DNA of 64,000 bases from an uncultured virus (IMG/VR IMGVR_UViG_3300042914_003341) (taxonomy: Duplodnaviria; Heunggongvirae; Uroviricota; Caudoviricetes): the IMG/VR virus record IMGVR_UViG_3300042914_003341; one strand, 5' to 3'. The notes below the pieces were generated by a model that was not told the origin of the DNA, did not search any database, and saw nothing but the letters and a program-made list of their open reading frames with translations. This document shows, piece after piece, positions 563 through 46,909 of this stretch (its first letter is position 1; every line of letters begins with the position of its first letter). Both the position numbers and the translations under genes were made by a program.

Positions 563-798
563 GACTCTGATGAATTGGTTTTTTGGTTGATGATAATGAA
601 CATGTCTCCCAGGTCTGCGAGCAAGGCGATATCCTCTGGCGCCTTGATCATCAGGCGCACATCAAAACAGCTTTTGAGCTTGTAGTACATGTAAGCATAG
701 TAGCAAACATCGTCTGCTGGATGGCCGATATGGTCTGGCCAGTCTTCCGGGACAAGGCCCATGTCTGTTGGTATGTTGTATAACTGTTGCCATTTCAT
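559..798 (-). CDS. small protein, ELAD-motif family
   Basis: LLADLGDMF near C-terminus. Confidence 0.6.
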   Translation of the reverse strand: MKWQQLYNIPTDMGLVPEDWPDHIGHPADDVCYYAYMYYKLKSCFDVRLMIKAPEDIALLADLGDMFIIINQKTNSSES

Positions 799-13760: not shown

Positions 13761-13789
13761 ACACTAGCATCAGTCTTCGACGGTGTCAA
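13761..13789 (-). promoter_or_regulatory. sigma70-type promoter, near-leaderless
   Basis: TTGACA-17-TAGTGT with extended TG; ATG 9 nt downstream. Confidence 0.65.
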
Positions 13790-15401: not shown

Positions 15402-15476
15402 GGCAAAATATCCTTGATGATGGTTGTTGTGAGCGTTCGTTCGTTCAGTCGAAGCCGTGTTGCTTCAACGGGGAAC

Positions 15477-15505
15477 AGACTATCAGAGGCTGGGATGGTT
15501 GTCAA
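15477..15505 (-). promoter_or_regulatory. sigma70-type promoter for Ro60
   Basis: TTGACA-17-TAGTCT with extended TG. Confidence 0.75.
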
Positions 15506-15746
15506 GTGGTGAAAGCATGAGCTCATCTGCTATCTCGGCAAAATCTACCAACATCCAAAAGCAGTATGAATCTTGCTTGAGCTCCTGCCAAACGCCAAGT
15601 CTAAACATTGCAAAGTATAACCCGTGTGTTGGCGAGCAACGTTGTAAAACATACCATGAATGCGGGAGCATTGGTTGTGTGGCATCGGCTAGGATCGATG
15701 CCACTCTTTCAATTCTATCCACAGAAACAATCTCCCAATTCAGCAA
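15483..15746 (-). CDS. small protein, ELAD-motif family
   Basis: DFAEIADEL. Confidence 0.55.
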   Translation of the reverse strand: MLNWEIVSVDRIERVASILADATQPMLPHSWYVLQRCSPTHGLYFAMFRLGVWQELKQDSYCFWMLVDFAEIADELMLSPLDNHPSL

Positions 15747-15903
15747 TCACGTGCATTTTGGTGCCGTCGTCACTAAGAGTATTTTTCATACTACCAGATT
15801 CTCCATAGACAATCAAGCACCAGATCGCTAACTCAATCTCACTGATAATCCTTCCTGGTATTACGCGATTAGCTACTGTCGTAGCAGAATCTTTAGATAT
15901 CAT
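15715..15903 (-). CDS. small protein, ELAD-motif family (WxLIxYG subfamily)
   Basis: IWCLIVYG; IAELGDCF. Confidence 0.65.
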   Translation of the reverse strand: MISKDSATTVANRVIPGRIISEIELAIWCLIVYGESGSMKNTLSDDGTKMHVIAELGDCFCG

Positions 15904-16082
15904 GTCCGGAAACAGTCTCCCAACTCACTAACCAAGTGCATTGGATGAGTTCTAAAGCGCACTGCTTGTATGGTGTCATAATTTGTATAGCAGATCAAAG
16001 CCCAAACAGTTATTTCTATCGGAGCATAATCCGCGTCGGGGCGCGACACAATATTATCTATCTGAAGAGGAGAATAGCTCAT
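15900..16082 (-). CDS. small protein, ELAD-motif family (WxLIxYG subfamily)
   Basis: VWALICY; VSELGDCF. Confidence 0.65.
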   Translation of the reverse strand: MSYSPLQIDNIVSRPDADYAPIEITVWALICYTNYDTIQAVRFRTHPMHLVSELGDCFRT

Positions 16083-16276
16083 GATGCAGCCAACAAATCC
16101 CCCAATTCTGTCATGAGATAAACTAGCGCTGGTTCTTTGTAGTCAATCATACGTTCCATCGTGCTCGAATTGCCATAGACAATCAAAGACCAAACAACCA
16201 GACCCATTGGTAATGTGTCAAATTCAGAGCGGCTTTTTGTAACTGCATCTGCAATTTCCAATTCTGCTTGCCTCAT
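16079..16276 (-). CDS. small protein, ELAD-motif family (WxLIxYG subfamily)
   Basis: VWSLIVYG; MTELGDLL. Confidence 0.65.
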   Translation of the reverse strand: MRQAELEIADAVTKSRSEFDTLPMGLVVWSLIVYGNSSTMERMIDYKEPALVYLMTELGDLLAAS

Positions 16277-16470
16277 AGCAAGACCATCACATCTGCAATC
16301 GTCGTTAGCAAATCAAATCCTTCAATTTTTGATTCTTTTGGGTGCCATCGAAGCATTGTGTAGATGTAGTACACAGTTTCATCAATGTCTGGCCCGCCAT
16401 GATCGATTATGTATGCACCAAAAGCTCTATAACACAAGTCTCTTCCTGGCAACACCTTCAGACTCGTCAT
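16273..16470 (-). CDS. small protein, ELAD-motif family
   Basis: LTTIADVM; ATGA start. Confidence 0.55.
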   Translation of the reverse strand: MTSLKVLPGRDLCYRAFGAYIIDHGGPDIDETVYYIYTMLRWHPKESKIEGFDLLTTIADVMVLL

Positions 16471-16664
16471 CGTTCGAACACATCTCCCAACTCGCAAACA
16501 AATTCTGTTTCTTTGAAATGTTTGCTTTCGTTCATCATCGATGCATGTGTCAGCGGGTCGTCGCCAAAATATATCAAAGACCAGATTATGAATCTGAAGC
16601 CAGATGCTGCGCCAGGAATCACACGGTTTCCGATCGATAATTCTTTGGGTGTTTCATTGTGCAT
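16467..16664 (-). CDS. small protein, ELAD-motif family (WxLIxYG subfamily)
   Basis: IWSLIYFG; VCELGDVF. Confidence 0.65.
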   Translation of the reverse strand: MHNETPKELSIGNRVIPGAASGFRFIIWSLIYFGDDPLTHASMMNESKHFKETEFVCELGDVFER

Positions 16665-16878
16665 GGTTAAACCTCGCTACTGATGATTCATCATCACAGC
16701 TCTTGCCGCAGTCCTCATCAGAAACCAGTAAACTATCATACAACCCTATTGAACGATAAACAATCATGTCCAACGATGACAGAACAACGTAACGACTCCC
16801 GTCCATATATGGAGAATACCCAGCGAAACAATCGCTGGTCACTCTGCTGGCATATTCTTCATGATTGGATAATCGCAT
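16654..16878 (-). CDS. small hypothetical protein
   Basis: Fills the gene array; lacks the motif. Confidence 0.45.
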   Translation of the reverse strand: MRLSNHEEYASRVTSDCFAGYSPYMDGSRYVVLSSLDMIVYRSIGLYDSLLVSDEDCGKSCDDESSVARFNHAQ

Positions 16879-17053
16879 CTGCTATCTCCGCAAACATGTT
16901 TATTTCATCGTTAACAAGATGTATGTCAAACGTACGATCACATAGACAATAGTACGTGATTTGATCGATGGTATTGACCACTGTGTCTTGGTTGTCTTTA
17001 GCCCCAAACACAGAGTCACAGAATTTGTTGAAACGTTCTTCAAGAGGCGTCAT
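16859..17053 (-). CDS. small protein, ELAD-motif family
   Basis: MFAEIADAI. Confidence 0.6.
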   Translation of the reverse strand: MTPLEERFNKFCDSVFGAKDNQDTVVNTIDQITYYCLCDRTFDIHLVNDEINMFAEIADAIIQS

Positions 17054-17324
17054 AGAGCATGTCTCCGATAGAGCTCAGCAACTTTGCATCCTCAAGGTCA
17101 TCGATGAATTGATCTTCCATGATGGCCAAGGCGGTTGCCCCAAAATCCGCGTTCAAGATCAGATAGAAGATTGTTTCGCGTAGATGCCTGTGCATCAGGA
17201 CGCGTTCATCCCTGATCATATGAACGACATTCTCAGCCATGACCATGATCATGTGTGTTGCGGCAAAATGTCGCCGATCCTCATCAGAAAATGGTGTGCC
17301 TAACATGTCTGGATCATTGGTCAT
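17040..17324 (-). CDS. small protein, ELAD-motif family
   Basis: LSSIGDML. Confidence 0.6.
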   Translation of the reverse strand: MTNDPDMLGTPFSDEDRRHFAATHMIMVMAENVVHMIRDERVLMHRHLRETIFYLILNADFGATALAIMEDQFIDDLEDAKLLSSIGDMLYDAS

Positions 17325-17330
17325 TTCTCT

Positions 17331-22494: not shown

Positions 22495-22718
22495 TTTTGC
22501 AACATGTCCATCAGATCGATGATCCACCAACTATCACCCAGTTGACTATGTTTACCCGCAATCCACTCTGCGTTTGGTTTGCTGAGTGACAAACACAGCC
22601 CACTATACATTCCATTCTCAAATTCAGAAATACCAAGTGCATAGTTGAATTGACTGTCAATCTCACCAATTCTTTGCTGTGAGCTAACAACCACAGCTAG
22701 GGCGAGATAATCATCCAT
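22491..22718 (-). CDS. small protein, ELAD-motif family
   Basis: IIDLMDML; start uncertain. Confidence 0.5.
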   Translation of the reverse strand: MDDYLALAVVVSSQQRIGEIDSQFNYALGISEFENGMYSGLCLSLSKPNAEWIAGKHSQLGDSWWIIDLMDMLQK

Positions 22719-23266
22719 ACTGACTTTGACTCTGGGGCAATCGTCACAGGGTGTTTGAGTTTGTTGTTGCACTTGATCTGCTCAAGCATCCTTTGCAGGA
22801 GGTCAGCACCGCGCTGCATCCCAAGATACACCTCGCGACCTTTGAACTTGCAAACAACCTTGACCTCATGGCCTTCCTCTACGAACTCCTTGACCTTTGA
22901 TGCCTTGACGTTGAGGTCGTTGTCGTCAATGTTCGGCCTGACAATGATCTCTTTTTGTTCCAGAGGCTTCGAACGGCCCTTCTGTGCCTTCTTCTGGTCG
23001 AACAGGAACTTGCCATAGTCAATGATCTTGCAAAGGCTGCGAGGACGTGTCTGACTCGCTGAGTTGATCTCAACCAGATCCAAACCTGCTTCATTCGCCA
23101 TTCCCAGCGCAACTTGCTTCGAGATGTTCTGGTGGTGGTTTCCATCTTGGTCGACAACATCAAGGTATTGCTCCTGGATGTAACCATTGGTTCGATGACT
23201 GCGACCACCAGTGGAAGCCGATGGACGAACTGGAAGGCGAGAACCGTTTGCTGTTTTGTTTCCCAT
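22697..23266 (-). CDS. infC: translation initiation factor IF-3
   Basis: AGLDLVEI, CKIIDYGKFLFDQKK, KEIIVRPNIDDNDL, KVVCKFKGRE. Confidence 0.93.
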   Translation of the reverse strand: MGNKTANGSRLPVRPSASTGGRSHRTNGYIQEQYLDVVDQDGNHHQNISKQVALGMANEAGLDLVEINSASQTRPRSLCKIIDYGKFLFDQKKAQKGRSKPLEQKEIIVRPNIDDNDLNVKASKVKEFVEEGHEVKVVCKFKGREVYLGMQRGADLLQRMLEQIKCNNKLKHPVTIAPESKSVWMIISP

Positions 23267-23353: not shown

Positions 23354-24436
23354 CTAGCAGGACACGAGAGTTTTTGCCGCGGAAATGGTGCTCAGAGGTA
23401 CTTTGAACGTTGGGCGTTTGAAAGATTCAGATTTGTCAGAGAAATATACCGGTTCTGAGGCAGAACCCAGCTCATCCTTCTCCCAGGTGACTTCAATCAC
23501 TGGTCCTTTGACCTCAGTTGCTATCCGACGTTGCTCATCGACGTTTGCTGACCATTGCACCGGTTTTGGCATGAAGACATCGCCATTCCTGTTTGGTGTG
23601 AGTTTGTTGAAGACCAGGGCAAGATGATCCTTGACCATGGTCGTCTGGAGTTCATTCAGCGCTGTTGGGTTTGCCATCTCAAAGAAACCTTGGAGCCAGT
23701 ACACGAACTGATCTGGTGTGATTGGCTGAGGTCTATTCTCTGGATGTTTTGCCGCCATTCTGTATGGATGATCAGCTCCCTTTGTCTTGCTGACCGCATT
23801 GGATTGATCAAACAAGTTCACGAACTTATGATCTGGGAACTTGTGCAGGATCTTGTCGACGTACTTGCCACGCTTGTAGTCGAATCCTGTCTTTGTCACA
23901 GTTTTATCAGCCATGTCCTTCAAGGCTCCAGGCTCCCCGGTGATCTTCTTTGTCACATGATTCCATGTGAACTTGGAGATCTCAACTGGAAATGACCCCA
24001 GGAGCTTTGACAGATCTGAGAACTCTGTCACAATCACTTGATATTTGATCCGATGAGCACCACTCAAGACAGATGATCGCCAGTCGATATGGCCGTCATA
24101 AACCCATTTGATCCCCGGGTTGCGATAGCCATAATCATCCGAATCGTCTGAGTATCGATCGCCCCGAGTTGCCTCTTTGACGTCAAAACCGGCTTCTCTG
24201 AGGGTGAACTCTAGTTGTGTCTTTGTGATCGTCGTGCCAATCAAGAAGATGTCAATGTCTGACGCTGGCTGCTGACGATACCATTCACGTGGAGCACCTC
24301 CAGCAACAACAGCTTCACGTGTCCATGGCAAATGACTGAGTGTTGACATCAGGTGATCTGTCGCAGCTTTCTGCGCCTTGATCAACTCTGCTGAGTCTTT
24401 TTGTTTGTGATAGTTTTTTAGTTCTGCTTTGTTCAC
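23354..24436 (-). CDS. Pol-beta-superfamily nucleotidyltransferase (CCA/poly(A)-like head) with extra C-terminal domain
   Basis: VAGGAPR...SDIDIF; GTG start overlapping upstream TGA; C-terminal TPDQFVYWLQGFFE segment. Confidence 0.75.
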   Translation of the reverse strand: MNKAELKNYHKQKDSAELIKAQKAATDHLMSTLSHLPWTREAVVAGGAPREWYRQQPASDIDIFLIGTTITKTQLEFTLREAGFDVKEATRGDRYSDDSDDYGYRNPGIKWVYDGHIDWRSSVLSGAHRIKYQVIVTEFSDLSKLLGSFPVEISKFTWNHVTKKITGEPGALKDMADKTVTKTGFDYKRGKYVDKILHKFPDHKFVNLFDQSNAVSKTKGADHPYRMAAKHPENRPQPITPDQFVYWLQGFFEMANPTALNELQTTMVKDHLALVFNKLTPNRNGDVFMPKPVQWSANVDEQRRIATEVKGPVIEVTWEKDELGSASEPVYFSDKSESFKRPTFKVPLSTISAAKTLVSC

Positions 24437-24867
24437 GTGCTTGTTGTTCCTTTTTCTTCTTCCTTCATCCTCTTCGCATCGAACTTGTCTTGATCTGCTT
24501 TGATAATAGCTTTGAACTCTTGCATCTGCTCCAGCAGGTTCCTGCCGCGAGCAACCAACATCCCTGCAAGATTTTTGTCGAGGAGCCATGGCTGGTGATA
24601 TTTCCAGGCAAAAGCGCTGTCAAACCCACAATCATGGCACCATAGCCTCTGGTGCCGACTGTACAATCCAGTGGTTTCTACCGGCTCAAAGTAATCATCA
24701 CCTCTGCGCATGTCCTTGTGACCACAGCGAGCCATGGCAAGCAACGCAGCGGCAATGGCCTCATACTGTGAATATGAAGAGTATCCATGACGTGCTAAAT
24801 CTACAGCATATCGATAAGCTTCTGTTTCCTTGTCAGCCTTCTTGCCGTCAGTGTTGTAGTCGCTCAT
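24433..24867 (-). CDS. hypothetical protein, possible Zn ribbon
   Basis: CGH...CHDCG. Confidence 0.6.
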   Translation of the reverse strand: MSDYNTDGKKADKETEAYRYAVDLARHGYSSYSQYEAIAAALLAMARCGHKDMRRGDDYFEPVETTGLYSRHQRLWCHDCGFDSAFAWKYHQPWLLDKNLAGMLVARGRNLLEQMQEFKAIIKADQDKFDAKRMKEEEKGTTST

Positions 24868-24872
24868 TGTCT

Positions 24873-25148
24873 TTATTCCGCCTTTGTTGTTGATTCAGGC
24901 TCAACCCAGCTACCGGTCTGGGACCATCCACACTTGATGCAATACCAGTAGGTCGTATAATCTGTTCTGTGCCCGTCATAGTCTTCCTCAGTGATTGTGT
25001 CAAGATCATCATGAGTGCACTCTAATGCCTTCCTGTGAATTTCTAGAGTGGTATTTAATTCACTGATCTGATCTTCGTAGTATTGGATCTGATCAAGTAA
25101 TTTCTCAGTGACGTCAGAAGATTTTGGCTTTGGCTCTATGTGATGCAT
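24873..25148 (-). CDS. hypothetical protein, coiled coil plus Zn ribbon
   Basis: CTH...CIKCG. Confidence 0.65.
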   Translation of the reverse strand: MHHIEPKPKSSDVTEKLLDQIQYYEDQISELNTTLEIHRKALECTHDDLDTITEEDYDGHRTDYTTYWYCIKCGWSQTGSWVEPESTTKAE

Positions 25149-25432
25149 GTGTAGGACTTTATCACATCGACTGGGTTGGTGTCAAGGCCACAGACTGTGT
25201 CGGCCAGACAAACAAACAATTCATATTTATTGAGTGCAACTACCTCGAACAAATAACCGAAATTGCTATCAAGGTCGGACATAGAATCGCTACCCGCAAC
25301 CATTAATATCAATCGCATGAACCGATGAGCAGGGGAATGTTCTGGGGAACGTTTTGGATAGTCGTCGGACGAGTACAGTCCACACTCTTCCTTGATTCGA
25401 TTGAAAATCTCTCTGATCCGGTAGTCATTCAT
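25136..25432 (-). CDS. small protein, ELAD-motif family
   Basis: LFVCLADTV. Confidence 0.6.
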   Translation of the reverse strand: MNDYRIREIFNRIKEECGLYSSDDYPKRSPEHSPAHRFMRLILMVAGSDSMSDLDSNFGYLFEVVALNKYELFVCLADTVCGLDTNPVDVIKSYTCIT

Positions 25433-25703
25433 TGGATGTTGTTTCTTTTGCGAACAGATCGGCTAGATCAAAGGTCATGCCAATGCGTGGGTTGGCTTTT
25501 GTTAGACCACTCAGAGTCTGCGCGCGATATGTTCTATCAATCTGAGAAAGCCAGTGACCAATGCCCCACGGCACTAAGATTTCTTCTTGCCCACATGTCG
25601 CGCGCAGAGCATGGATTTCTTCCGTTTTTTCTCCAACGCTATCGAATCTTGCGTGTATACTGTCCAAATGCAATCTTTTTGCTACTAAAGACATTTCATT
25701 CAT
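25425..25703 (-). CDS. small protein, ELAD-motif family
   Basis: MTFDLADLF. Confidence 0.65.
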   Translation of the reverse strand: MNEMSLVAKRLHLDSIHARFDSVGEKTEEIHALRATCGQEEILVPWGIGHWLSQIDRTYRAQTLSGLTKANPRIGMTFDLADLFAKETTSNE

Positions 25704-25939
25704 TGGATACTGCCCGTCACAAACATGTCTGCCAGATCAAATGTAAGTCCTACGACGCCACTCGTCAAACCAAGCAGTCTTTGTTTTTGAACCGCATCAT
25801 CGATATGATACATCCAAAAAGCAAATCCCCAGGCATCGTCAATGCCGCGACCATCTGGGCCGCGAAGACGCGCATCGGAGATCAATCTTAGTTTTTCTGT
25901 AACTGATATGCAACACTTCTGATGGCGTTTGTCATTCAT
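25700..25939 (-). CDS. small protein, ELAD-motif family
   Basis: LTFDLADMF. Confidence 0.65.
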   Translation of the reverse strand: MNDKRHQKCCISVTEKLRLISDARLRGPDGRGIDDAWGFAFWMYHIDDAVQKQRLLGLTSGVVGLTFDLADMFVTGSIQ

Positions 25940-26226
25940 TGGACACTTCCCGCTGCAAACAGATCGCAGAGCTCAATGAAAAACCGGTTCATATGCAGTA
26001 GATTCATGTCTTCCGCCGTGATCACTTTCCAAAAATTATGATCAACGAACTGATTGATTGGTAGATTAAACTTTCTATCTGTTTGCTGGTAGATATAGTC
26101 AGCCACCATGAACATTCTTGACTCGACACGGACGCCATCCTTGCTGGAATAATACTTCCATGGGAGCCTGACTGTCTTTGACGTCAGGAGTTGTCGTTTC
26201 ATCAGGTCTGCTTTGGTTATTGGCAT
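25936..26226 (-). CDS. small protein, ELAD-motif family
   Basis: FFIELCDLF. Confidence 0.65.
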   Translation of the reverse strand: MPITKADLMKRQLLTSKTVRLPWKYYSSKDGVRVESRMFMVADYIYQQTDRKFNLPINQFVDHNFWKVITAEDMNLLHMNRFFIELCDLFAAGSVQ

Positions 26227-26462
26227 TCTAATCTTTCATGCGCGTTGACTATGAAGAAGTCGCAGAGGTCAACAAACTTGAACTCTCTTTCCTCCAGGCG
26301 TTCTTTTGTGAAGGATGAGCCGCCATGGCCACTAAGAGCTCTGGCAAACCAACAGCCAAAGATGTTTGGCGCAAACAATCCCAGTTCCGAGGCTTTCATG
26401 AAGCCAGGAACACCTTGGATGGCACGTATCTTTTCTGTTCTGATCATAGAGTTCACTGACAT
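26217..26462 (-). CDS. small protein, ELAD-motif family
   Basis: KFVDLCDFF. Confidence 0.6.
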   Translation of the reverse strand: MSVNSMIRTEKIRAIQGVPGFMKASELGLFAPNIFGCWFARALSGHGGSSFTKERLEEREFKFVDLCDFFIVNAHERLECQ

Positions 26463-26686
26463 ACTGGTTGAAGCATGTCCCCGATGTCGGCAAGCTCACC
26501 GAGTGTATCATGGCCGCGATAATTCATGAATTCGTTGCCGTTCCGATGCGCGTAGGATGGATTGAAAAATGCAGCACACCTGATCGTGGTAAACATCGCG
26601 AACAGAAAGCGGCACGATAGATTGCGTGCTACGCGCTCAGCAGTGAGTTTGGTGTCTATTTGGCGACAGAAGCCGATTGTCAACAT
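26453..26686 (-). CDS. small protein, ELAD-motif family
   Basis: ELADIGDML; AGGAG upstream. Confidence 0.6.
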   Translation of the reverse strand: MLTIGFCRQIDTKLTAERVARNLSCRFLFAMFTTIRCAAFFNPSYAHRNGNEFMNYRGHDTLGELADIGDMLQPVCQ

Positions 26687-26714
26687 GCTGCTCCTTGTTG
26701 TGTGAATAAACTAT

Positions 26715-26788
26715 TGGATCACAGTGAGGGAGTTGAACCCCCATTCAACGAGTCAAAGTCGTTTGTCCTACCATTGGACGAACTGTGA
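26715..26788 (-). tRNA. tRNA-Gln(TTG)
   Basis: Cloverleaf, loop CTTTGAC, CCA encoded. Confidence 0.9.
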
Positions 26789-26798
26789 ATGGTAACGG

Positions 26799-26875
26799 TG
26801 GTGGGTCTGCTGAGATTTGAACTCAGATTTCACAGATTAAGAGTCTGGTGTAATAAACCGTTATACTACAAACCC
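26799..26875 (-). tRNA. tRNA-Lys(CTT)
   Basis: Loop CTCTTAA, CCA encoded. Confidence 0.9.
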
Positions 26876-26901
26876 AAATATGAACGAAACGAACGAAACA
26901 G

Positions 26902-26973
26902 TAGCCCCAGAAGGAATCGGACCTCCGACCTCCAAGGCGTAAGCTTGGGGTTCTGCCATTGAACTATAGGGCC
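26902..26973 (-). tRNA. tRNA-Val(TAC)
   Basis: Loop CTTACGC; T-loop TCCGATT; no CCA. Confidence 0.8.
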
Positions 26974-26992
26974 AGATGAAGAAAAAAAGGAG

Positions 26993-27189
26993 AGCGGGTC
27001 CAAGGAATTGAACCTTGATAGTCCATCGATGGAGGCAAGAGATTTTGGCCGCGAAACATGATCAGTGCTCGGAACAAAAACTCTTGTAATCAACCATCTA
27101 GCTGAATGCAGATCATTGATCAGATGACCTACACCGGCAGACCCTGCCAGATTGGACTCTGGCGGCATTAGCCAAAATGCGTGACCCGC
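26993..27189 (-). ncRNA. giant tRNA-like RNA (Gly-type acceptor, about 125-nt variable region)
   Basis: GCGGGTC/GACCCGC-T, D arm, GCCAG-AGTCCAAT-CTGGC arm, T arm CAAGG-TTCAATT-CCTTG. Confidence 0.75.
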
Positions 27190-27211
27190 GTGAAAAGAAA
27201 AACAAAGGTAG

Positions 27212-27327
27212 CTGGGACGATCGGAGTCGAACCGATAGAGGGGCCTCGCGGATACCCTGTCAGGTTTCGCCGCAAAACTATTCTTGCAGCTACCGACTGA
27301 CTTCTCTGTCCATTTGAATACATCCCA
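27212..27327 (-). ncRNA. tRNA-like RNA with about 33-nt anticodon loop and long variable arm
   Basis: TGGGATG/CGTCCCA, GTCAG/CTGAC stem, T arm ATCGG-TTCGACT-CCGAT. Confidence 0.7.
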
Positions 27328-27332
27328 GATAG

Positions 27333-27403
27333 AGCGTGTGACGAGACTCGAACTCGTAATCCGAGCTTGGAAGGCAGGGCTTTTACCATTAAATTACACA
27401 CGC
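27333..27403 (-). tRNA. tRNA-Gly(TCC)
   Basis: Loop CTTCCAA, U73; two anticodon-stem mismatches. Confidence 0.8.
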
Positions 27404-27458
27404 AAAGAAACCAAGGCAGTTAAGTCAAAGCTAAGGAAGAAGAAGAAAGAGATTGCTG

Positions 27459-27722
27459 TCAGAAAGTTCTCGTGACACATCCTCGCATGAACCCACAGCA
27501 GGCGTTCATCCGCACCTGACGACCGGCAGGGTTTGTTGCAGCGATGGTAAACTCCGTGTCATACCCCTTCCCGCAGAGATGAACGTAAGAAGTATCAACA
27601 ACCCTGACGTTGGAGAACCCCATGTCCTGGAAATGCTGAACTGCTGTGTCCTGGCTTGAGCAGGCAGTGGTAGCAGTTGAAGACAGAACCAGGAGCGCAA
27701 GAAGGCGTAGAGAGTTTCGCAT
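27459..27722 (-). CDS. small lipoprotein
   Basis: MRNSLRLLALLVLSSTATTA-C signal peptide and lipobox; Cys-rich C-terminus. Confidence 0.75.
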   Translation of the reverse strand: MRNSLRLLALLVLSSTATTACSSQDTAVQHFQDMGFSNVRVVDTSYVHLCGKGYDTEFTIAATNPAGRQVRMNACCGFMRGCVTRTF

Positions 27723-27760
27723 CGCTTTATATACCTTTCGTGAATGTTGTTGACCGACAG

Positions 27761-27846
27761 TAGGGCTGGAGGGATTTGCACCCCCAGTTGCGGTTTTGCC
27801 GCGTCCGATTTTGAGCCGGAAGTGTCTGCTGTTCCACCACAACCCC
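27761..27846 (-). tRNA. tRNA-Leu(CAA)
   Basis: Loop CTCAAAA, long variable arm. Confidence 0.88.
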
Positions 27847-27861
27847 AAACTTAACCAAACA

Positions 27862-28024
27862 TGGAGCGTGCCGCAGGAGTTGAACCCGCACAGGGAGGCC
27901 ACCCCTGTCTCTTGCCAGTGTTTCGATGGGCGAAACACCTCTGACCATCTTTGACTGAGAGAGTCATAGCTCTTTGGAGGGCGACTCCAGCTATTGGTAC
28001 TTCTCAGTCAGCAAGATAGCACGC
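27862..28024 (-). ncRNA. giant tRNA-like RNA (Gly-type acceptor, about 70-nt D arm)
   Basis: GCGTGCT/GGCACGC-T-CCA, T arm GCGGG-TTCAACT-CCTGC, long hairpin TGACTGAGA/TCTCAGTCA. Confidence 0.75.
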
Positions 28025-28060
28025 ATATTTTCTATCTCACGTTGCCTTGGAGACACTCAG

Positions 28061-28089
28061 ACTCTAGCACGAGGCTTCAAGGCTGTCAA
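28061..28089 (-). promoter_or_regulatory. sigma70-type promoter (RNA island)
   Basis: TTGACA-17-TAGAGT with extended TG. Confidence 0.7.
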
Positions 28090-28097
28090 GTGCAACG

Positions 28098-28352
28098 TCA
28101 AAGCTCTGAGTTCGCTGGCGCAATAATATCGCACAACTCGGTCAGGAACATGAGACGCTGCGGCCAATCATGGCTTGGCTCAGAAAACGAAGGATAAACT
28201 CTTTTAAGGAGGTGTGCATTGTGGCGGTCGGCGCTGCCAAAGCAATAATCAATCATGTCGGAAAGAAATGTCTCATTCAAAGGTATGGACGCCGCACCAA
28301 TTCGCTGGCCCAATTTCATGATCGAATCTTGACGTGCAGTGATGCAATCCAT
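28098..28352 (-). CDS. small protein, ELAD-motif family
   Basis: FLTELCDII; AGGAG upstream. Confidence 0.65.
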   Translation of the reverse strand: MDCITARQDSIMKLGQRIGAASIPLNETFLSDMIDYCFGSADRHNAHLLKRVYPSFSEPSHDWPQRLMFLTELCDIIAPANSEL

Positions 28353-28390
28353 TTGATTCTCCTTCTATATGATTGTTAGGTCATCAACAG

Positions 28391-28490
28391 TGGGTCGCCT
28401 AGGAATTGAACCTAGTTGCCTTCGACGGGCGGTGCGTTTCCAAGAAACTTCGTTTTGCAGCGCACTGTTCAGCCATTGAACCTCCGACCC
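28391..28490 (-). ncRNA. tRNA-like RNA with 24-nt anticodon loop (begins CT-GCA-A) and long variable arm
   Basis: GTGCG/CGCAC stem, D arm GTTCA/TGAAC, T arm CTAGG-TTCAATT-CCTAG. Confidence 0.7.
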
Positions 28491-28509
28491 CAAACAAGAA
28501 GAAACATAG

Positions 28510-28581
28510 TGGAGAATAGCGGTTATGCTCCGCTCATCCCTGTGTGCAAGACAGGAGTTTTCCTGAATAAACTAATTCCCC
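28510..28581 (-). tRNA. tRNA-Ala(TGC)
   Basis: G3:U70, loop CTTGCAC, atypical T-loop AGCATAA. Confidence 0.8.
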
Positions 28582-28625
28582 AAACACAAACTACAAGGCA
28601 TGAAGGTTCTGCGGCAAAAACAAGT

Positions 28626-28736
28626 TGGCTGCACCGCTGAGATTTATCTTCTATTCCCCCAGATCTGCCGGTTGACCCCCGGTTATCTTACTACGTCATC
28701 GAGATGGTCGCGAGTTGATGTTTAGACGACAGTGCT
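28626..28736 (-). ncRNA. degenerate Asp-like tRNA-like RNA with enlarged D and T loops
   Basis: GCACTG/CGGTGC, G73-CCA, CCGG-GGGTCAA-CCGG. Confidence 0.5.
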
Positions 28737-28738
28737 AG

Positions 28739-28810
28739 CGCCTCCAGGGAGAATTGAACTCCCGTCTGGTGATCGACAATCACCGGTCCTATCCACTGAA
28801 CGATAGAGGC
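28739..28810 (-). tRNA. tRNA-Asp(GTC)
   Basis: Loop TTGTCGA, G73. Confidence 0.88.
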
Positions 28811-28831
28811 TAAGAAACAATAAGGCAAAGT

Positions 28832-28919
28832 TGGGAGTTTGCGAGGAATCGAACCTCTTGAGGTAGCTAACCACACCCGGTGTGCCCGAGCCGCAGATAT
28901 CCTTTCTGCCAACAAACTC
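28832..28919 (-). ncRNA. atypical tRNA-like RNA (8-bp acceptor, 4-bp T stem)
   Basis: GAGTTTGT/GCAAACTC-CCA, GAGG-TTCGATT-CCTC, 5-bp D stem; anticodon ambiguous. Confidence 0.65.
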
Positions 28920-28932
28920 ATGATATCATCAG

Positions 28933-29005
28933 CACCGCTACTAGGAATCGAACCTAGATGCAACTGTTTAGAAGACAGAGCCCTTATCCATTAGGGGATA
29001 GCGGC
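28933..29005 (-). tRNA. tRNA-Arg(TCT)
   Basis: Loop CTTCTAA. Confidence 0.88.
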
Positions 29006-29018
29006 AAAACAACAAGGG

Positions 29019-29085
29019 GCAGCGACAACATTGGTACGTCCAGGGGTTTACAGTTAAAGATGTATCCTAGACATTCATTCGCTGC
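29019..29085 (-). ncRNA. Y RNA-like stem-loop 1
   Basis: GCAGCGAATG...TACATC...TTGTCGCTGC. Confidence 0.7.
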
Positions 29086-29106
29086 ATGAAAAAGGAGAGG
29101 CTTGTT

Positions 29107-29182
29107 TGGTTGGCACACCTGGAATTGAACCAGGGACAACCAGCTTATCAAGCTGGGATTCTAACCGCTGAACTATGTGCCA
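29107..29182 (-). tRNA. tRNA-Ile(GAT)
   Basis: Loop TTGATAA, CCA encoded. Confidence 0.92.
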
Positions 29183-29192
29183 GTAAGAAGGC

Positions 29193-29268
29193 TATGACGA
29201 CAACGCAAGGCATTTCCTGTAGAGCGTGCATATTTTCAAGATGTATTCTACAAGGATCATTCGTCATA
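29193..29268 (-). ncRNA. Y RNA-like stem-loop 2
   Basis: TATGACGAATG...TACATC...TTGTCGTCATA. Confidence 0.75.
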
Positions 29269-29275
29269 CAGAAAC

Positions 29276-29366
29276 TATAGAGACAAAAGTTAGGTCTGGT
29301 GGGTTGGGATCGGGTTTATTAGACCCGATTTTTAGTCAATGTAACCAGATTCCTGCATTCTCTATG
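29276..29366 (-). ncRNA. Y RNA-like stem-loop 3
   Basis: ATAGAGAATG...TACATT...TTGTCTCTAT. Confidence 0.6.
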
Positions 29367-29369
29367 TGA

Positions 29370-29444
29370 GGCTCCACCCGTAGGATTCGAACCTACATTC
29401 CAAATGTTAACAGCATTTTTTTCTACCGGTTGAAATAGAGTGGA
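29370..29444 (-). tRNA. tRNA-Asn(GTT)
   Basis: Loop CTGTTAA, G73. Confidence 0.88.
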
Positions 29445-29449
29445 AAACT

Positions 29450-29514
29450 GTGACGACAAACAAGTTCTATAGAAGCTTACAATTTCGAATGTATTCTACA
29501 GATTCATTCGTCAC
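29450..29514 (-). ncRNA. Y RNA-like stem-loop 4
   Basis: GTGACGAATG...TACATT...TTGTCGTCAC. Confidence 0.75.
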
Positions 29515-29568
29515 GTGATACTTGATGAGATGCTCTTCTTCTTTTCTTCTTCGCTCCTGACACCTTAG

Positions 29569-29597
29569 AGACTATCAGAGGCTGGGAAGGTTGTCAA
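29569..29597 (-). promoter_or_regulatory. sigma70-type promoter (RNA island)
   Basis: TTGACA-17-TAGTCT, one mismatch from the Ro60 promoter. Confidence 0.75.
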
Positions 29598-29615
29598 GTG
29601 CAGCGTCAAGGCAGT

Positions 29616-29708
29616 TGGCAGAAGGTGCAGGATTTGAACCTGCGGGGGCATGATTAGTGCCCCGGAAGTTTAGCAAACTTCTGTGTTAGACCACTCCACC
29701 AACCTTCT
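29616..29708 (-). tRNA. tRNA-Ser(GCT)
   Basis: Loop TTGCTAA, long variable arm, G73-CCA. Confidence 0.92.
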
Positions 29709-29720
29709 ATGAAGGAAACT

Positions 29721-29798
29721 TGCGGCGACAACTAGAAGGCAACCATGGTGTTGTTTATTCTGTATGATGGATGTAAACACCTTGGTACATTCGCCGCG
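29721..29798 (-). ncRNA. Y RNA-like stem-loop 5
   Basis: GCGGCGAATG...TACATC...TTGTCGCCGC. Confidence 0.75.
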
Positions 29799-29831
29799 AA
29801 AACCTAAATCACATTCAAACTATTATCTTAG

Positions 29832-29929
29832 CCCCAGAGCCTAGGTTCGAACTAGGATTGTCTGGCTTCATGCCAGTCGTAATACCTCACAGCTTTCGCC
29901 TTGTGTTGCACTGTTTATACTACCCCAGG
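29832..29929 (-). ncRNA. tRNA-like RNA with hairpin inserted in D loop
   Basis: T arm CCTAG-TTCGAAC-CTAGG; anticodon arm CTGGC-ATGAA-GCCAG. Confidence 0.65.
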
Positions 29930-29938
29930 AAATTAGTT

Positions 29939-30017
29939 CCAGCAACCCAATCGGAATGCCACCGATGTCTCGCATGATTTTGCGCGTCCTTAAGCTCCCT
30001 AGACGATGGTTTGCTGG
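29939..30017 (-). ncRNA. tRNA-like RNA with extended acceptor stem and short anticodon arm
   Basis: CCAGCAA/TTGCTGG; CGCA-AAATCA-TGCG; ATCGG-TGGCATT-CCGAT. Confidence 0.55.
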
Positions 30018-30090
30018 TGGTGTTGCCTCATGGATTTGCACCATGATTCTTACGGATGCCTCCGCGCTTCACTAATCAAAGCTTGACAAC
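30018..30090 (-). ncRNA. tRNA-like RNA with 4-nt anticodon loop
   Basis: GTTGTC/GGCAAC-A-CCA; GCGGA-GGCA-TCCGT; CATGG-TGCAAAT-CCATG. Confidence 0.65.
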
Positions 30091-30107
30091 CTGGCTTGCG
30101 GCCATTG

Positions 30108-30211
30108 TGTACAGTACCAGACTCGAACTGATCTCTCAGGCTTTCATGCCTGTGTTTTTACCATTCAGCTTCGTGCTAGCCCTAGTCACTGAACTTGAAA
30201 ACTAACTGCAC
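30108..30211 (-). ncRNA. tRNA-like RNA with hairpin inserted in D loop (paralogue of 29832..29929)
   Basis: GTGCAGT/ACTGTAC; CAGGC-ATGAAA-GCCTG; ATCAG-TTCGAGT-CTGGT. Confidence 0.7.
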
Positions 30212-30257
30212 AAGTGATGATGATTGGTGCACTGACAAAGGATAGCAACTGATGTTT

Positions 30258-30473
30258 TTATCTCCAAATGATGTAATCAGGTGCTGCATTCAGTGCGTTA
30301 GACTTTGGCAATGTCTGAACCGGTTTGCCATCCGGAGATATGAAACACACTGTGATCAGACTCAGTGATCCCCGACACCACAAACACCCATTGTTTTGGA
30401 TTGGGAAGGCAAGAAGAGAGACAACTAGTTCCGGAACTGATGTTGGTATCTGAAATGATGTAATCAGTTCCAT
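30258..30473 (-). CDS. hypothetical protein
   Basis: 71-aa ORF between RNA genes. Confidence 0.4.
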   Translation of the reverse strand: MELITSFQIPTSVPELVVSLLAFPIQNNGCLWCRGSLSLITVCFISPDGKPVQTLPKSNALNAAPDYIIWR

Positions 30474-30487
30474 TCATTCTCTCTATA

Positions 30488-30564
30488 TGGTGCGTGGAGT
30501 TGGGTTCGAACCAACGACCTTATCCTTAAAAGGGATTTGCTGCTACCAACTGAGCTATCCACGC
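30488..30564 (-). tRNA. tRNA-Lys(TTT)
   Basis: Loop CTTTTAA, CCA encoded. Confidence 0.92.
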
Positions 30565-30624
30565 GGCCCCGGTTTCCTATAACATCATCCCAGCCAGTAT
30601 ACCAGAAACAGCGCTGGGTGACGA

Positions 30625-30701
30625 CACTTTTATCTCATCCTCCCGATTCGAACGGGCTTTATCCGGCTTGCGGCCGAACCTGTGACCAACACAGTAAGTG
30701 C
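30625..30701 (-). ncRNA. tRNA-like or pseudo-tRNA (GCA loop), acceptor stem disrupted
   Basis: CTGTG-TTGGT-CACAG; TTCGG-CCGCAAG-CCGGA; CCCG-TTCGAAT-CGGG. Confidence 0.5.
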
Positions 30702-30728
30702 TAAAGGACTTGAAACTTCGTGCAAGTT

Positions 30729-30823
30729 TGGAGCCGCCTTCTGCTTTCGAAGCAGCATTTCACCCTTGGTCCCCAGTATAGCTAAACTTGGGGGAGTGCG
30801 TTCTACCTTTGAACTACGACGGC
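30729..30823 (-). ncRNA. tRNA-like RNA with elongated anticodon arm
   Basis: GCCGTC/GGCGGC-T-CCA, canonical D arm, CACTC/GGGTG extended by CCCCA/TGGGG. Confidence 0.7.
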
Positions 30824-30877
30824 AATACAGCACACATTCCAGAGGTTGCTTAAACGCAACTTGTATGGTGCTGTTAG

Positions 30878-30948
30878 TCAGGGAACCTAGGCTCGAACTA
30901 GGGACTCACCGATCCAAACGGTGAACGTTACCACTACGCCATTCCCTG
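30878..30948 (-). tRNA. tRNA-Pro(TGG)
   Basis: Loop TTTGGAT, C1-G72, A73. Confidence 0.88.
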
Positions 30949-30997
30949 AAAACTAAGGTAAGATAAGATATTATCGAGGCTTGCGAGGCATGATCAG

Positions 30998-31026
30998 AAT
31001 CTAGCATGAGGCAGAAGGCTTGTCAA
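30998..31026 (-). promoter_or_regulatory. sigma70-type promoter (RNA island)
   Basis: TTGACA-17-TAGATT with extended TG. Confidence 0.7.
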
Positions 31027-31052
31027 GTGGAGCGTCAAGAGGCGGGGTAAGT

Positions 31053-31155
31053 GATGATTGTTTCGGTGAGATTTGCACTCACAACACAGGCTTTCGCTCT
31101 AGGGATGGTGGCACCAACTTGCCTTCTCTGTTTGGACTTGCGAAACACAATCATC
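31053..31155 (-). ncRNA. structured RNA with T arm and long terminal stem
   Basis: GATGAT..TGTTTCG/CGAAACA-ATCATC; GTGAG-TGCAAAT-CTCAC. Confidence 0.55.
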
Positions 31156-31157
31156 GG

Positions 31158-31298
31158 TGGGATCAGAAGGAGTTGCACCTTCATCTGTGATTTGCGTTTT
31201 ACCGTTAAACTATCCTAAAACCACCATGACAGTAGGTACTAGGAGGCGTTTCGAAACGCCAACTCGGTTGCACACTCTACTAGTTGAGTTATGATCCC
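31158..31298 (-). ncRNA. double-bodied tRNA-like RNA (permuted T-acceptor-D module in place of the anticodon loop)
   Basis: Outer GGGATCA/TGATCCC with D and T arms; inner GGCGT-TTCGAA-ACGCC, TCCTA/TAGGA, GTTT-AACGGTA-AAAC. Confidence 0.7.
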
Positions 31299-31488
31299 TA
31301 ATGCCTTCTGCCTAATAAGCAGAAGGGCTTTTCTCCAGGCAACTACCATAGAATGGTCCATGGGCTGTCCGGAATTGTTTTTTTGATCAGTTCTGATATG
31401 CCAGCCAATTCATCGGATCAAGCATACCACCCAACCGATCACGGGGAACACACGCAAAGGATTTTGTTAAACCATGCATTGTGTGTTC

Positions 31489-31564
31489 GGTAGCCCTGGT
31501 GAGAATTGAACTCGACATCGACGGAGTGAAGGTCCATCATCCTAAGCCATTAGAAGACAGGGCC
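31489..31564 (-). tRNA. tRNA-Glu(TTC)
   Basis: Loop CCTTCAC (C33), bulged T stem. Confidence 0.8.
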
Positions 31565-31622
31565 GAACAAGAAACAACATGTTGTCAGAGAACAGTCAGA
31601 AGAACTAAGTCTTCTTTGTGCT

Positions 31623-31697
31623 TGGTCGCGGCATCGGGAATCGCACCCGAAACTAGAGGGTATGAACCTCTCGTGATAACTGTTTCACTATACCGCA
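31623..31697 (-). tRNA. tRNA-Met(CAT), possibly initiator-like
   Basis: Loop TTCATAC, U1:G72, CCA encoded. Confidence 0.85.
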
Positions 31698-31837
31698 ATC
31701 TAGAAGGCTGTAACAAAATAAGTATGTGAGTCCTATGATAATTCCGTCACACTTCGATGTCTAACGTTACTGTTTGTTTCCAAGGCTATTACAAGATAGG
31801 CTTGATAGCTCTTGTGTTGCTCTGCGGCGATGAGGTA

Positions 31838-32337: not shown

Positions 32338-32680
32338 GGGAGTGTGCGGCTGGGATCAGCATGTTTGTTGGTGCTGTTCTAGGCATACGCACTAGTTTGT
32401 AATATCTTTTCTTAGAGACGTGCTTGGTGCCATCTTTGTCTTCTGTCGTTGTTTTGATTCGTTTAAGTAAACTTAGCTGGAACACGTCTGGGGTTGTTGA
32501 GTTCTTTTCACTATCAATCCGGATTGCATCGACAACCCAGCCGAGAATATGATGGCCATTAATCTTCCTAGGTGTTGACTTGATGAACCAAACAATGCTT
32601 TGGCGCCCCAGATTGATGATCATATCTCCAGGCAGAATGTTTAGACTCTCCGGAAATACTTCTTTGTTGGATCTGTTCAT
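32327..32680 (-). CDS. hypothetical protein
   Basis: ATGA-coupled ORF. Confidence 0.6.
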   Translation of the reverse strand: MNRSNKEVFPESLNILPGDMIINLGRQSIVWFIKSTPRKINGHHILGWVVDAIRIDSEKNSTTPDVFQLSLLKRIKTTTEDKDGTKHVSKKRYYKLVRMPRTAPTNMLIPAAHSLDS

Positions 32681-33351
32681 TGTTCTTCTGCTTTCGTTTC
32701 CACTTGGATGATCATGAGTTTTCTTGCAACGTTGATTGTCTTGAGCCCTGTGCCTGGATGTTGGATGGTTTTGCCGCCGTCGTCGTGCACATGACCATGG
32801 ATATGATATCTGATGTTCAGGTGCTTGTGGATTTCATCCTCCAGGCCCATAACACCCCACTCAGGTTTGTTGTCACAAAGAACTGTTGAGCTTGGAGAGT
32901 GCGTGACGAGAATGTCTGGTTCAAGGTTGCAAGCACGCACAGAATATTCTCTCAATTCCTTTGGAGAGGCATCGAGGTTTGTGGCACCGAAACCTGCAAA
33001 GGACAATCCAAGAATATTGCAGAGGCTGTTGTGAGTGATCTTATGGCTGTTTGGAATGTGATACTTGAGTTGATCATGTAGAGATATTGCGTCATGGTTT
33101 CCATCGACGGACAGGATGGGTTTGCCGCCTAGAAGGGAGATGAACTGGTTGCGGTTCTTGTTCCACCATTCCAGTTGACCTTTCTTCTCGTAGGGTGATC
33201 CATACCATGCAATGTCTGGGAAGAAATCACCGCAAGAAACCCAGAATTCCACGTGATCATACCAACTGTTCTTGCCGTTGTTACCAATCCCAAGAATGTT
33301 GGCATAGCCGCCGTGTAAATCTGAGAATATTCCTATGTTTCTTGTGGCCAT
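32677..33351 (-). CDS. calcineurin-like metallophosphoesterase
   Basis: SDLHG, GDF, GNHD, THSP, HGHVH. Confidence 0.92.
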   Translation of the reverse strand: MATRNIGIFSDLHGGYANILGIGNNGKNSWYDHVEFWVSCGDFFPDIAWYGSPYEKKGQLEWWNKNRNQFISLLGGKPILSVDGNHDAISLHDQLKYHIPNSHKITHNSLCNILGLSFAGFGATNLDASPKELREYSVRACNLEPDILVTHSPSSTVLCDNKPEWGVMGLEDEIHKHLNIRYHIHGHVHDDGGKTIQHPGTGLKTINVARKLMIIQVETKAEEQ

Positions 33352-46852: not shown

Positions 46853-46909
46853 GTTGTTTTGCAGACCATATTCTGCCGCAAAAACGTTGAGATGTCAAGG
46901 ACCGGGCAT

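Follow-up and report, generated by a model that had tools for sequence, protein, structure and literature searches.

Clusters of tRNA genes in phage genomes are usually read as codon-supply or anti-defence kits. The tRNA region of phage T4 also gives rise to a pair of small RNAs, named RNAC and RNAD, which have been validated by Northern blot (excerpt of PMC9697503) and whose role is described as unknown in excerpts of articles from 2010 (PMC3014915) and 2022 (PMC9697503). Long variable loops of known tRNAs are given as '10 or more' nucleotides (excerpt of PMC7609411), and the Deinococcus radiodurans Y RNA Yrn1 has a 5-bp 'anticodon' stem with a 6-nt loop (excerpt of PMC4201824). No phage tRNA-like gene with a variable region above 100 nt was described in the titles and abstract openings surveyed, most subscription journals lying outside that scope. 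Here we describe E197, a 197-nt tRNA-shaped element on the minus strand (27189..26993) of a 64,000-nt stretch, the window, of an uncultured Caudoviricetes virus (IMG/VR IMGVR_UViG_3300042914_003341); RNA position p corresponds to window coordinate 27190-p. We propose, with a probability of roughly 0.45, that E197 is a non-decoding, tRNA-scaffolded stable RNA from a phage tRNA operon, comparable to T4 RNAC and RNAD but with a new architecture.

E197 folds into a cloverleaf with a minimum free energy (MFE) of -79.5 kcal/mol (z = -5.29), and none of 200 shuffled sequences was as stable; with the rarity of such frames in a strict scan described below, this makes E197 more than a chance fold. Its parts follow one another in the order acceptor strand GCGGGUC, A8 and C9, D arm, C26, anticodon-type hairpin, AG, a 124-nt block, AU, T arm, GACCCGC and U73. 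Pair probabilities reached 0.88–1.0 in 42 of the 43 pairs of the acceptor, T, anticodon, basal and arm B helices, and 0.60 in the remaining pair. E197 has the 7-bp acceptor stem, the T arm with a UUCRANY loop, the G53-C61 pair and the GG of the D loop that are found in canonical tRNAs; it fails on the 7-nt anticodon loop with U33 and a purine at position 37. The loop has either 6 nt (GUCCAA) on a stem of 6 bp or 8 nt (AGUCCAAU) on 5 bp. The D arm had a pair probability of merely 0.3 in the unconstrained ensemble, A8 and U14 replace the usual U8 and A14 of tRNAs, and the element is followed by UCUCC, without an encoded CCA. At 128 nt and branched, the variable region lies outside both class I (4–5 nt) and class II (a single arm of ~10–25 nt).

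As it stands, E197 gave no match to RF00005 at E ≤ 10 (Rfam search of 26980–28500) and no default ARAGORN call. Deleting the insert (p47–170) in five slightly different ways led default ARAGORN to call a 74–76-nt tRNA-?(Gly|Trp)(cc) with a 6-nt loop in all five cases. This signifies that a tRNA frame is present, but that the anticodon hairpin is probably not a decoding one. An earlier note on this DNA had pointed to the acceptor pairs G1-C72, C2-G71 and G3-C70 with U73, to the lack of G3:U70, to a TCC-containing loop of abnormal size and to about 125 nt ahead of the T arm. These features are all in the sequence: position 3 is G3-C70, the 6-nt or 8-nt loop bears UCC/CCA, and 128 nt separate the anticodon stem from the T stem, 124 of them in one closed domain. 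E197 is a real, structured and unusual element.

The 124-nt insert is closed by a basal stem of 14 bp (6+5+3 bp, with two 1x1 mismatches), in which 13 pairs had probabilities of 0.91–0.98 and G52.U165 had 0.60. Four of the 14 pairs are G.U, for which a DNA palindrome would have no need. Folded alone, the insert reached -42.8 kcal/mol (z -2.99) on the minus strand versus -31.5 kcal/mol (z -1.62), with a different fold, on the plus strand. The earlier note had drawn four hairpins in this region. Two of them, UGAUCAAU/GUUGAUUA and CAAGAG/CUCUUG, are part of the MFE structure; the other two, GGUCUGC/GUAGGUC and the palindrome UCCAUCGAUGGA, had a pair probability of 0.0, and their stretches pair with each other instead, forming the basal stem. 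The four-hairpin layout scored -68.2 kcal/mol versus -78.9 kcal/mol for the closed junction. The broader claim of the earlier note, a tRNA-type RNA with an extra structured domain, is supported by an unbroken tRNA frame and by a 124-nt domain that is stable and specific to one strand. The coordinates of these parts and of other features of the window are collected in Table 1.

Table 1. Features of E197 and of its surroundings in the 64,000-nt window.
Feature	Coordinates	Strand	Evidence or remark
E197, whole; discriminator U73 at 26993	26993..27189	-	MFE and z; U-rich spacers on both sides, like neighbouring tRNAs
Acceptor 5' strand GCGGGUC (p1-7)	27183..27189	-	perfect pairing with 26994-27000; pair probability 0.99-1.0
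D arm GCAU / UUUGGCUA / AUGC (p10-25)	27165..27180	-	sequence; drawn by ARAGORN on insert-deleted core
Anticodon-type hairpin GCCAGA-GUCCAA-UCUGGC (p27-44)	27146..27163	-	pair probability 0.97-1.0; unchanged in the wastewater relative
Insert (p47-170), closed three-way junction at variable-arm position	27020..27143	-	folding
Basal stem 5' strand (p47-62: GGUCUG-C-CGGUG-U-AGG)	27128..27143	-	pairs with 27020-27035
Arm A hairpin (p68-103)	27087..27122	-	present in MFE
Arm B hairpin (p104-154), base CAAGAG/CUCUUG	27036..27086	-	pair probability 0.88-1.0
Basal stem 3' strand (p155-170), holds palindrome UCCAUCGAUGGA	27020..27035	-	MFE and pair probabilities
T arm CAAGG-UUCAAUU-CCUUG (p173-189)	27001..27017	-	pair probability 0.99-1.0
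Acceptor 3' strand GACCCGC (p190-196)	26994..27000	-	sequence; pairs with acceptor 5' strand
Sigma-70-like promoter TTGACA-17-TAGAGT with TG	28061..28089	-	nearest upstream of E197; inferred transcript start
Mini-Y-like RNAs (seven)	30415-30484, 30229-30296, 29721-29797, 29451-29514, 29277-29365, 29195-29267, 29019-29085	-	
Thg1-like	795-1697		PHROG/Pfam
HAD_SAK_2	13158-13751		PHROG/Pfam
Ro60 (TROVE + vWA)	13770-15401	same as E197	PHROG/Pfam; 11.6 kb from E197
IF3	22697-23266		PHROG/Pfam
Nucleotidyltransferase	23354-24589		PHROG/Pfam
Metallophosphatase	32677-33351		PHROG/Pfam
R2K ATP-grasp	39939-40823		PHROG/Pfam

Several other identities were considered and rejected. The insert has no second copy in the window, and on this ground together with the strand-specific pairing a repeat or miniature inverted-repeat transposable element was rejected. 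A 100-codon open reading frame (ORF; 26866–27168) overlaps E197, crosses tRNA-Val and enters tRNA-Lys; because it crosses tRNA-Val and because a relative described below carries out-of-frame deletions of 5 and 9 nt inside it, it is not a gene. Searches against Rfam gave no match at E ≤ 5–10 to tmRNA, group I introns, small ribozymes, riboswitch aptamers (glycine included) or Y_RNA/YrlA. The earlier note had already judged E197 too short for a tmRNA or a group I intron, and both exclusions hold up: neither ARAGORN nor Rfam called a tmRNA (only meaningless permuted calls arose at an ARAGORN threshold of 80%), a D stem and an anticodon hairpin are present, no Rfam intron was matched, and the insert sits after the anticodon stem.

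The window is phage-like: it shows similarity to phage proteins in PHROG and Pfam, contains a cluster of tRNA genes and has small ORFs in tight succession, nearly all genes lying on the minus strand; the stretch is present in lake-water metagenome runs. The cluster spans 26715–31697 on the minus strand and holds 14 tRNAs by ARAGORN or 16 by Rfam. E197 is flanked by a 116-nt tRNA-like element and tRNA-Val, on the same strand and with the same U-rich spacers as the 16 Rfam tRNAs. It resembles RNAC and RNAD in lying on the tRNA strand inside a phage tRNA cluster without being a decodable tRNA. No promoter-like or terminator-like site was found in or beside E197, nor between the promoter at 28089–28061 and E197, and we infer that this promoter drives it. 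A promoter cassette (CACTTGACA, 17 nt, TGnTAnnnT) recurs on the minus strand at 31026–30998 and 28089–28061, with similar sites near 31830 and 29590, and divides the cluster into several transcription units. The host is taken to be bacterial because the cluster contains repeated sigma-70-type promoters whose -10 boxes are TG-extended and because the phage encodes IF3.

Starting from the observed fold, position, strand specificity and retention in one relative, a route can be proposed for the expression, processing, non-decoding nature and binding role of E197. Transcription from the promoter at 28089–28061 would produce a polycistronic precursor containing a 160-nt tRNA-like element, tRNA-Leu, a small ORF, tRNA-Gly, the 116-nt tRNA-like element, E197, and tRNA-Val, Lys and Gln. 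Host tRNA end-processing enzymes could then cut E197 out at the ends of its acceptor stem by way of the intact acceptor, T arm and GG-containing D loop, and the same parts would lend it tRNA-like stability. The three-way junction would branch off at position 45/46, the exit point of class II variable arms, and the insert could thereby protrude with the L-shape undisturbed. Because the loop of the anticodon hairpin has 6 or 8 nt, no normal anticodon would be presented; with a non-decoding hairpin, the RNA would accordingly act through its extra domain, most likely as a protein-binding platform.

The search for homologues, named as a check in the earlier note, yielded a single relative, among the contigs of four runs. 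This 1,346-nt contig comes from a wastewater run (X16; labelled RNA-Seq but probably DNA), covers 26718–27812 at ~96% identity and keeps the whole element; searches of INPHARED, IMG/VR, JGI metagenomes and GTDB genomes gave no further homologue. Of the other three of these runs, the contigs of X4 and X5 span E197 in part and show no differences, and that of X6 does not span it. DNA patterns of E197 and the adjacent tRNA-Val had 0 matches in IMG/VR and 0 in GTDB genomes, and blastn of 26600–27500 against 50,697 phage records gave a match limited to the tRNA-Gly part. Single protein queries with the nucleotidyltransferase, IF3 and Ro60 yielded no full-length relative in IMG/VR or JGI metagenomes; the 17 loci from the JGI protein search all matched merely a domain of 33–72 residues.

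At the paired sites, the relative carries C54>U in the basal stem, which turns G-C into G.U and keeps the pair, U152>C at the base of arm B, which breaks A106-U152, and G189>U in the T stem, which breaks the closing pair C173-G189. Pairing is unaffected by A87>G in a loop, A181>G in the T loop, or U15>G and a one-base deletion in the D loop. The variant folds into the same architecture at -70.3 kcal/mol. The insert differs by three substitutions in 124 nt and no indel, the tRNA core of E197 by 4 events in 73 nt (1 indel), the four spacers by 8 in 76 nt (5 indels), and tRNA-Gln, Lys and Val by 3 in 224 nt (2 indels). The insert diverged less than the spacers (Fisher p = 0.023), a value drawn from one low-depth contig and a self-chosen spacer set and uncorrected for multiple tests. 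This is modest evidence that the insert is under constraint, weakened by the two pair-breaking changes and the single contig.

The same contig differs from the window in neighbouring genes. In the tRNA-Gly at 27332–27403, 30 nt (27366–27395, RNA positions 9–38) are replaced by 115 other letters, and the contig departs from the window at 27812, in the anticodon of tRNA-Leu, its onward sequence containing the promoter's -10 box; between close relatives, the cluster is mosaic. In the 116-nt element, by manual mapping, the acceptor-stem U.G has become U-A, which improves the pair, and 3 nt are inserted in the anticodon-loop insert.

Several results weigh against E197 being a stable, non-decoding RNA. 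No RNA run was found among the sequencing runs in which the stretch is present. E197 lacks homologues in the four collections named above, and for this reason the insert has no covariation support. A strict scan for tRNA frames with a variable region above 25 nt (1.28 Mb, 78 sources, both strands) returned four rows, namely E197, an artefact of two tandem tRNA-Met genes (L050) and one 105-nt element counted twice (L002 and L012 are the same contig); no other tRNA with a giant variable arm was found in ~1.1 Mb of Ro60-phage loci (53 loci). The giant-arm design is lineage-specific, as a recent accident would be. Two of the three paired-site changes in the relative break pairs, with a predicted fold 9 kcal/mol weaker, and the Fisher test carries the limits given with it.

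The acceptor pairs and U73 match what we take to be the bacterial Gly identity rules (G1:C72, C2:G71, G3:C70, U73, C35, C36), and G1-C72 and U73 are presumably at odds with those for bacterial Trp. The insert-deleted core was scored against 423 class I tRNAs taken from 56 phage sources; a tRNA-Gly(ccc) came first and the first Trp ranked 13th; four of the top six matches were Gly, two of those being one sequence from duplicate contigs. The anticodon loop reads UCC or U-CCA-A (Trp) equally, its CC sitting in an off-size loop. ARAGORN assigned the core a two-base anticodon '(cc)', Gly|Trp, and under a relaxed intron model Trp(cca). None of the cluster's own tRNAs is close to the core, and a recent duplication of the tRNA-Gly(UCC) two genes upstream was rejected (alignment score 10, rank 8 of 16). 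The Gly type assigned in the earlier note is thus plausible but unsettled, the acceptor and discriminator set and most of the nearest tRNAs being Gly while the loop reads Trp equally well. The body plausibly derives from a tRNA of the Gly type and might still accept an amino acid.

The rival that survives best, although we regard it as unlikely, is a pseudogene: 124 nt would have been inserted into the variable loop of a Gly-type tRNA gene and one base gained or lost in its anticodon loop, and the gene would be passively transcribed or silent and without function. The off-size loop, the unusual A8 and U14 and the missing CCA would fit such decay, as would the orphan sequence and the distance of the core from every tRNA of the cluster. 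The relative adds its two broken pairs out of three paired-site changes, with the 9 kcal/mol loss, and a cluster that looks unstable, with its tRNA-Gly replacement and departure inside tRNA-Leu. Several points speak against a damaged gene: the insert forms a closed domain of its own precisely at the one position that can accept an arm in a tRNA, its stability is strand-specific with G.U pairs in use, and it has diverged less than the spacers and taken no indel; the acceptor and T arms are perfect, and an insert without a second copy is no obvious repeat element.

It is improbable that E197 is a pre-tRNA from which the insert is excised, either as p47–170, leaving a Gly/Trp-type tRNA, or as p39–148, a 110-nt anticodon-loop intron leaving tRNA-Trp(cca). 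ARAGORN with introns of up to 200 nt and an 85% threshold does call tRNA-Trp(cca) i(39,110), whose loop GUCCAAC has the regular 7 nt. The canonical set lacks Trp, Phe, Cys and His, and these are provided by calls within the cluster under relaxed intron settings (Phe at 27327–27211, also at default thresholds; Cys at 28490–28390; His at 29929–29831). Rfam aligns 28391–28490 as a tRNA with a 19-nt anticodon-loop insertion, and the phage has RNA-end enzymes (Thg1-like, HAD_SAK_2, nucleotidyltransferase). Splicing was kept as a rival because other cluster genes bear anticodon-loop insertions and the relaxed calls supply Phe, Cys, Trp and His. The 110-nt model, however, folds at -63.7 versus -78.9 kcal/mol, 15 kcal/mol worse, with an anticodon stem of pair probability 0.0, a C.U mismatch in that 5-bp stem and a 2-nt linker; U152>C in the relative would cut the stem to 3 pairs. 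Inspection revealed no bulge-helix-bulge at either junction, only single-stranded AG and AU beside a stem with 1x1 mismatches 5 bp apart. There was no group I or ribozyme match, and no splicing endonuclease or RNA ligase domain among 52 ORFs scanned against Pfam in the window, which is part of the genome. G1-C72 and U73 are also unlike what we take to be the bacterial Trp rules, and the host is bacterial by its sigma-70-type promoters and IF3.

A decoding tRNA-Gly that keeps its giant arm and uses an 8-nt loop for four-base or shifted reading is very improbable: the Gly acceptor set and the CC in the loop would suit it, and frameshift-suppressor tRNAs with 8-nt loops exist, many of them Gly, but a G and not the near-universal U33 precedes UCC, the 6-bp/6-nt form is the predicted one (sixth pair probability 0.97), the window's ORFs stay open with the standard code, and we know of no precedent for a 124-nt arm on a ribosome-bound tRNA.

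E197 lies among other irregular tRNA-shaped genes, found on the minus strand at 27213–27327, 27866–28024, 28391–28490, 30109–30211, 30729–30823, 31058–31147, 31159–31298, 30018–30090 and 29941–30014. Some have 17–33-nt insertions in the anticodon loop (Phe, Cys and Gly(ccc) by relaxed ARAGORN calls); that in 27211–27327 is called by ARAGORN -i at default settings. In others, whole inner domains are replaced (160 and 141 nt). A second scan, for a perfect acceptor stem and T arm outside ARAGORN tRNAs, returned 26994–27189, 27213–27327, 27866–28024, 30109–30211 and 31159–31298 in the window, all on the tRNA strand. In 55 other phage loci, where the kind recurs, it returned 29 rows on the gene strand versus 4 on the other; duplicate contigs and nested rows are counted in these numbers, along with at least one known tmRNA. 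Among these elements, E197 alone combines an intact anticodon hairpin with a giant variable arm. Two further tRNA-like elements in the window have 6-nt loops, and one of them ends in an encoded ACCA.

In IMG/VR phage contigs, tRNA-shaped RNAs of 115–167 nt lie directly 3' of Ro60 genes (L047 11804–11926; L071 11846–11974 and 12144–12310), as do others at L061 12540–12673 and 12678–12805 and at L025 11823–11937. They keep the arms of acceptor, D and T type, and in place of the anticodon arm they have a 50–60-nt domain with CUUG-hairpin-GAAUR and UACAU. Rfam scores L047 11804–11926 (50.7 bits) and L071 11846–11974 (43.8 bits) as full-length tRNAs with ~50-nt insertions. These RNAs look like circularly permuted YrlA, with the ends at the acceptor stem and a loop that closes the Ro-type stem.

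Myxophage Mx1, the best Ro60 match (40% identity), holds no element comparable to E197; its 267-nt and 188-nt rows enclose ordinary tRNAs. Both Mx1 and the Streptomyces phage Blueeyedbeauty are related large phages with a tmRNA in the tRNA cluster. The Mx1 tmRNA (L006 9726–10103, record 46646–47023) is full-length at 117.7 bits in Rfam and unannotated in the record, and its 3' end overlaps a 126-nt CDS annotated 'Hef-like endonuclease'; the Mx1 cluster also has several unannotated tRNA-shaped genes of 66–76 nt. In Blueeyedbeauty, a manA-RNA-like match (L024 1413–1570; 45.2 bits against a gathering score of 55.2, E 5e-9) takes up exactly the space that separates tRNA-Gln from tRNA-Trp. After tRNA-Ile, ~2 kb upstream of the Ro60 gene, comes a partial match to YrlA (34 bits); this Ro60 gene is itself inside the tRNA cluster.

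By their predicted domains, the genes in the surroundings of the cluster are RNA-centred (Table 1). Small paralogous ORFs (~60–98 codons) form two runs on the minus strand, 24873–26686 and 15402–17330, and have C-terminal motifs in common, for example ELGD(C/L)F and LCDLFAAGS; the ORFs of these two runs were given no family assignment. Interleaved with the tRNAs of the cluster are seven paralogous hairpin RNAs of 64–89 nt on the minus strand. Their invariant parts are GAAUG, G..UACAU and UUGUC, and their 7-bp outer stem covaries, with double changes in 5 of the 7 pairs. Three of the seven fit GNCGAAN0-1G, the YrlA/YrlB 5' motif (Chen et al., 2014, excerpt of PMC4201824); a real phage YrlA begins GGGUCGAAUG. 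A model (R1) built from these seven hairpins alone, which score 53–69 bits against it, picked up another 55 matches at E ≤ 10 in 55 other phage loci, of which 53 are Ro60-anchored. Every one of these matches is on the Ro60 strand, and many adjoin the Ro60 gene. The seven hairpins look like a Ro60-linked mini-Y RNA family.

E197 was rejected as a member of this family: it scored ≤ 2.8 bits against R1 with filters off, its best score being on the wrong strand, and CAAUG, UUACAA and CUUGCC are near misses of the family motifs. A more speculative proposal, which we hold to be quite improbable, is a chargeable Gly-type body whose variable arm has turned into a protein-docking three-way junction, working with the phage Ro60 and mini-Y set. 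If true, E197 would link a phage protein to a host factor that binds tRNA (a synthetase, an elongation factor or a defence enzyme that cuts tRNA), and would be a further architecture of tRNA-mimicking ribonucleoprotein RNA. The proposal draws on two Y RNA-like features of E197 given below, at the base of the insert and before the T stem.

Viewed as a whole, the cluster mixes ordinary tRNAs, seven Ro60-type small RNAs and several tRNA-shaped RNAs with an exchanged or enlarged interior. Of these, E197 goes furthest: its tRNA frame is complete, and its 124-nt domain sits at the one site that tolerates an arm. If made and kept, it would be a natural counterpart of the engineered tRNA scaffold and a handle on the role of such RNAs in infection. 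If merely a damaged gene, it would still show how insertions enter phage tRNA genes; the neighbouring tRNA-Gly of the relative has a different replacement, of 115 letters.

Among known systems, class II tRNAs (Leu, Ser, Tyr) and tRNA-Sec share with E197 an extra helix between the anticodon stem and the T stem. The region in E197, however, has 128 nt and is branched, the anticodon loop has 6 or 8 nt, and the acceptor set is Gly-like, that of a class I family. In the engineered tRNA scaffold, a foreign structured RNA is embedded in a tRNA body for processing and stability; it replaces the anticodon arm, whereas E197 is natural and uses the variable-arm site. In tmRNA, as in E197, the 5' and 3' ends form an acceptor and T arm that enclose a large internal domain, but tmRNA has G3:U70, no anticodon arm and a tag frame, whereas E197 has G3-C70, a D stem and an anticodon hairpin.

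Archaeal tRNA introns resemble the insert in measuring tens to about a hundred nucleotides and in lying inside and outside the anticodon loop (excerpt of PMC4090602); unlike them, E197 belongs to a phage with a bacterial host, lacks a bulge-helix-bulge and is accompanied by no endonuclease found in the window. Like E197, YrlA and Y RNAs pair a tRNA-like module with a second structured module, and a Ro60 gene lies in the same phage as E197. The CUAU directly before the T stem of E197 fits YUAY, and the GGUCUGC at the base of the insert is identical in 5 of 7 positions to the Ro60-contacted heptamer GGUCCGA of vertebrate Y RNAs (both in the excerpt of PMC4201824). We treat these two resemblances as leads only, with a chance expectation of about one in ten by our own estimate. 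The motif GNCGAAN0-1G is absent from the 197 nt, which gave no Rfam match to Y_RNA or YrlA, and E197 has free acceptor ends, which YrlA lacks.

T4 RNAC and RNAD are, according to the excerpt of PMC3014915, non-tRNA small RNAs in the tRNA region of a virulent phage that are co-transcribed with the tRNAs, which is the setting proposed here for E197. They show no sequence similarity to it in the blastn search of 26600–27500 against the 50,697 phage records. In E197 the D arm is complete, an anticodon-type hairpin is present and the extra domain sits at the variable-arm site, which would set it apart from the T4 RNAs.

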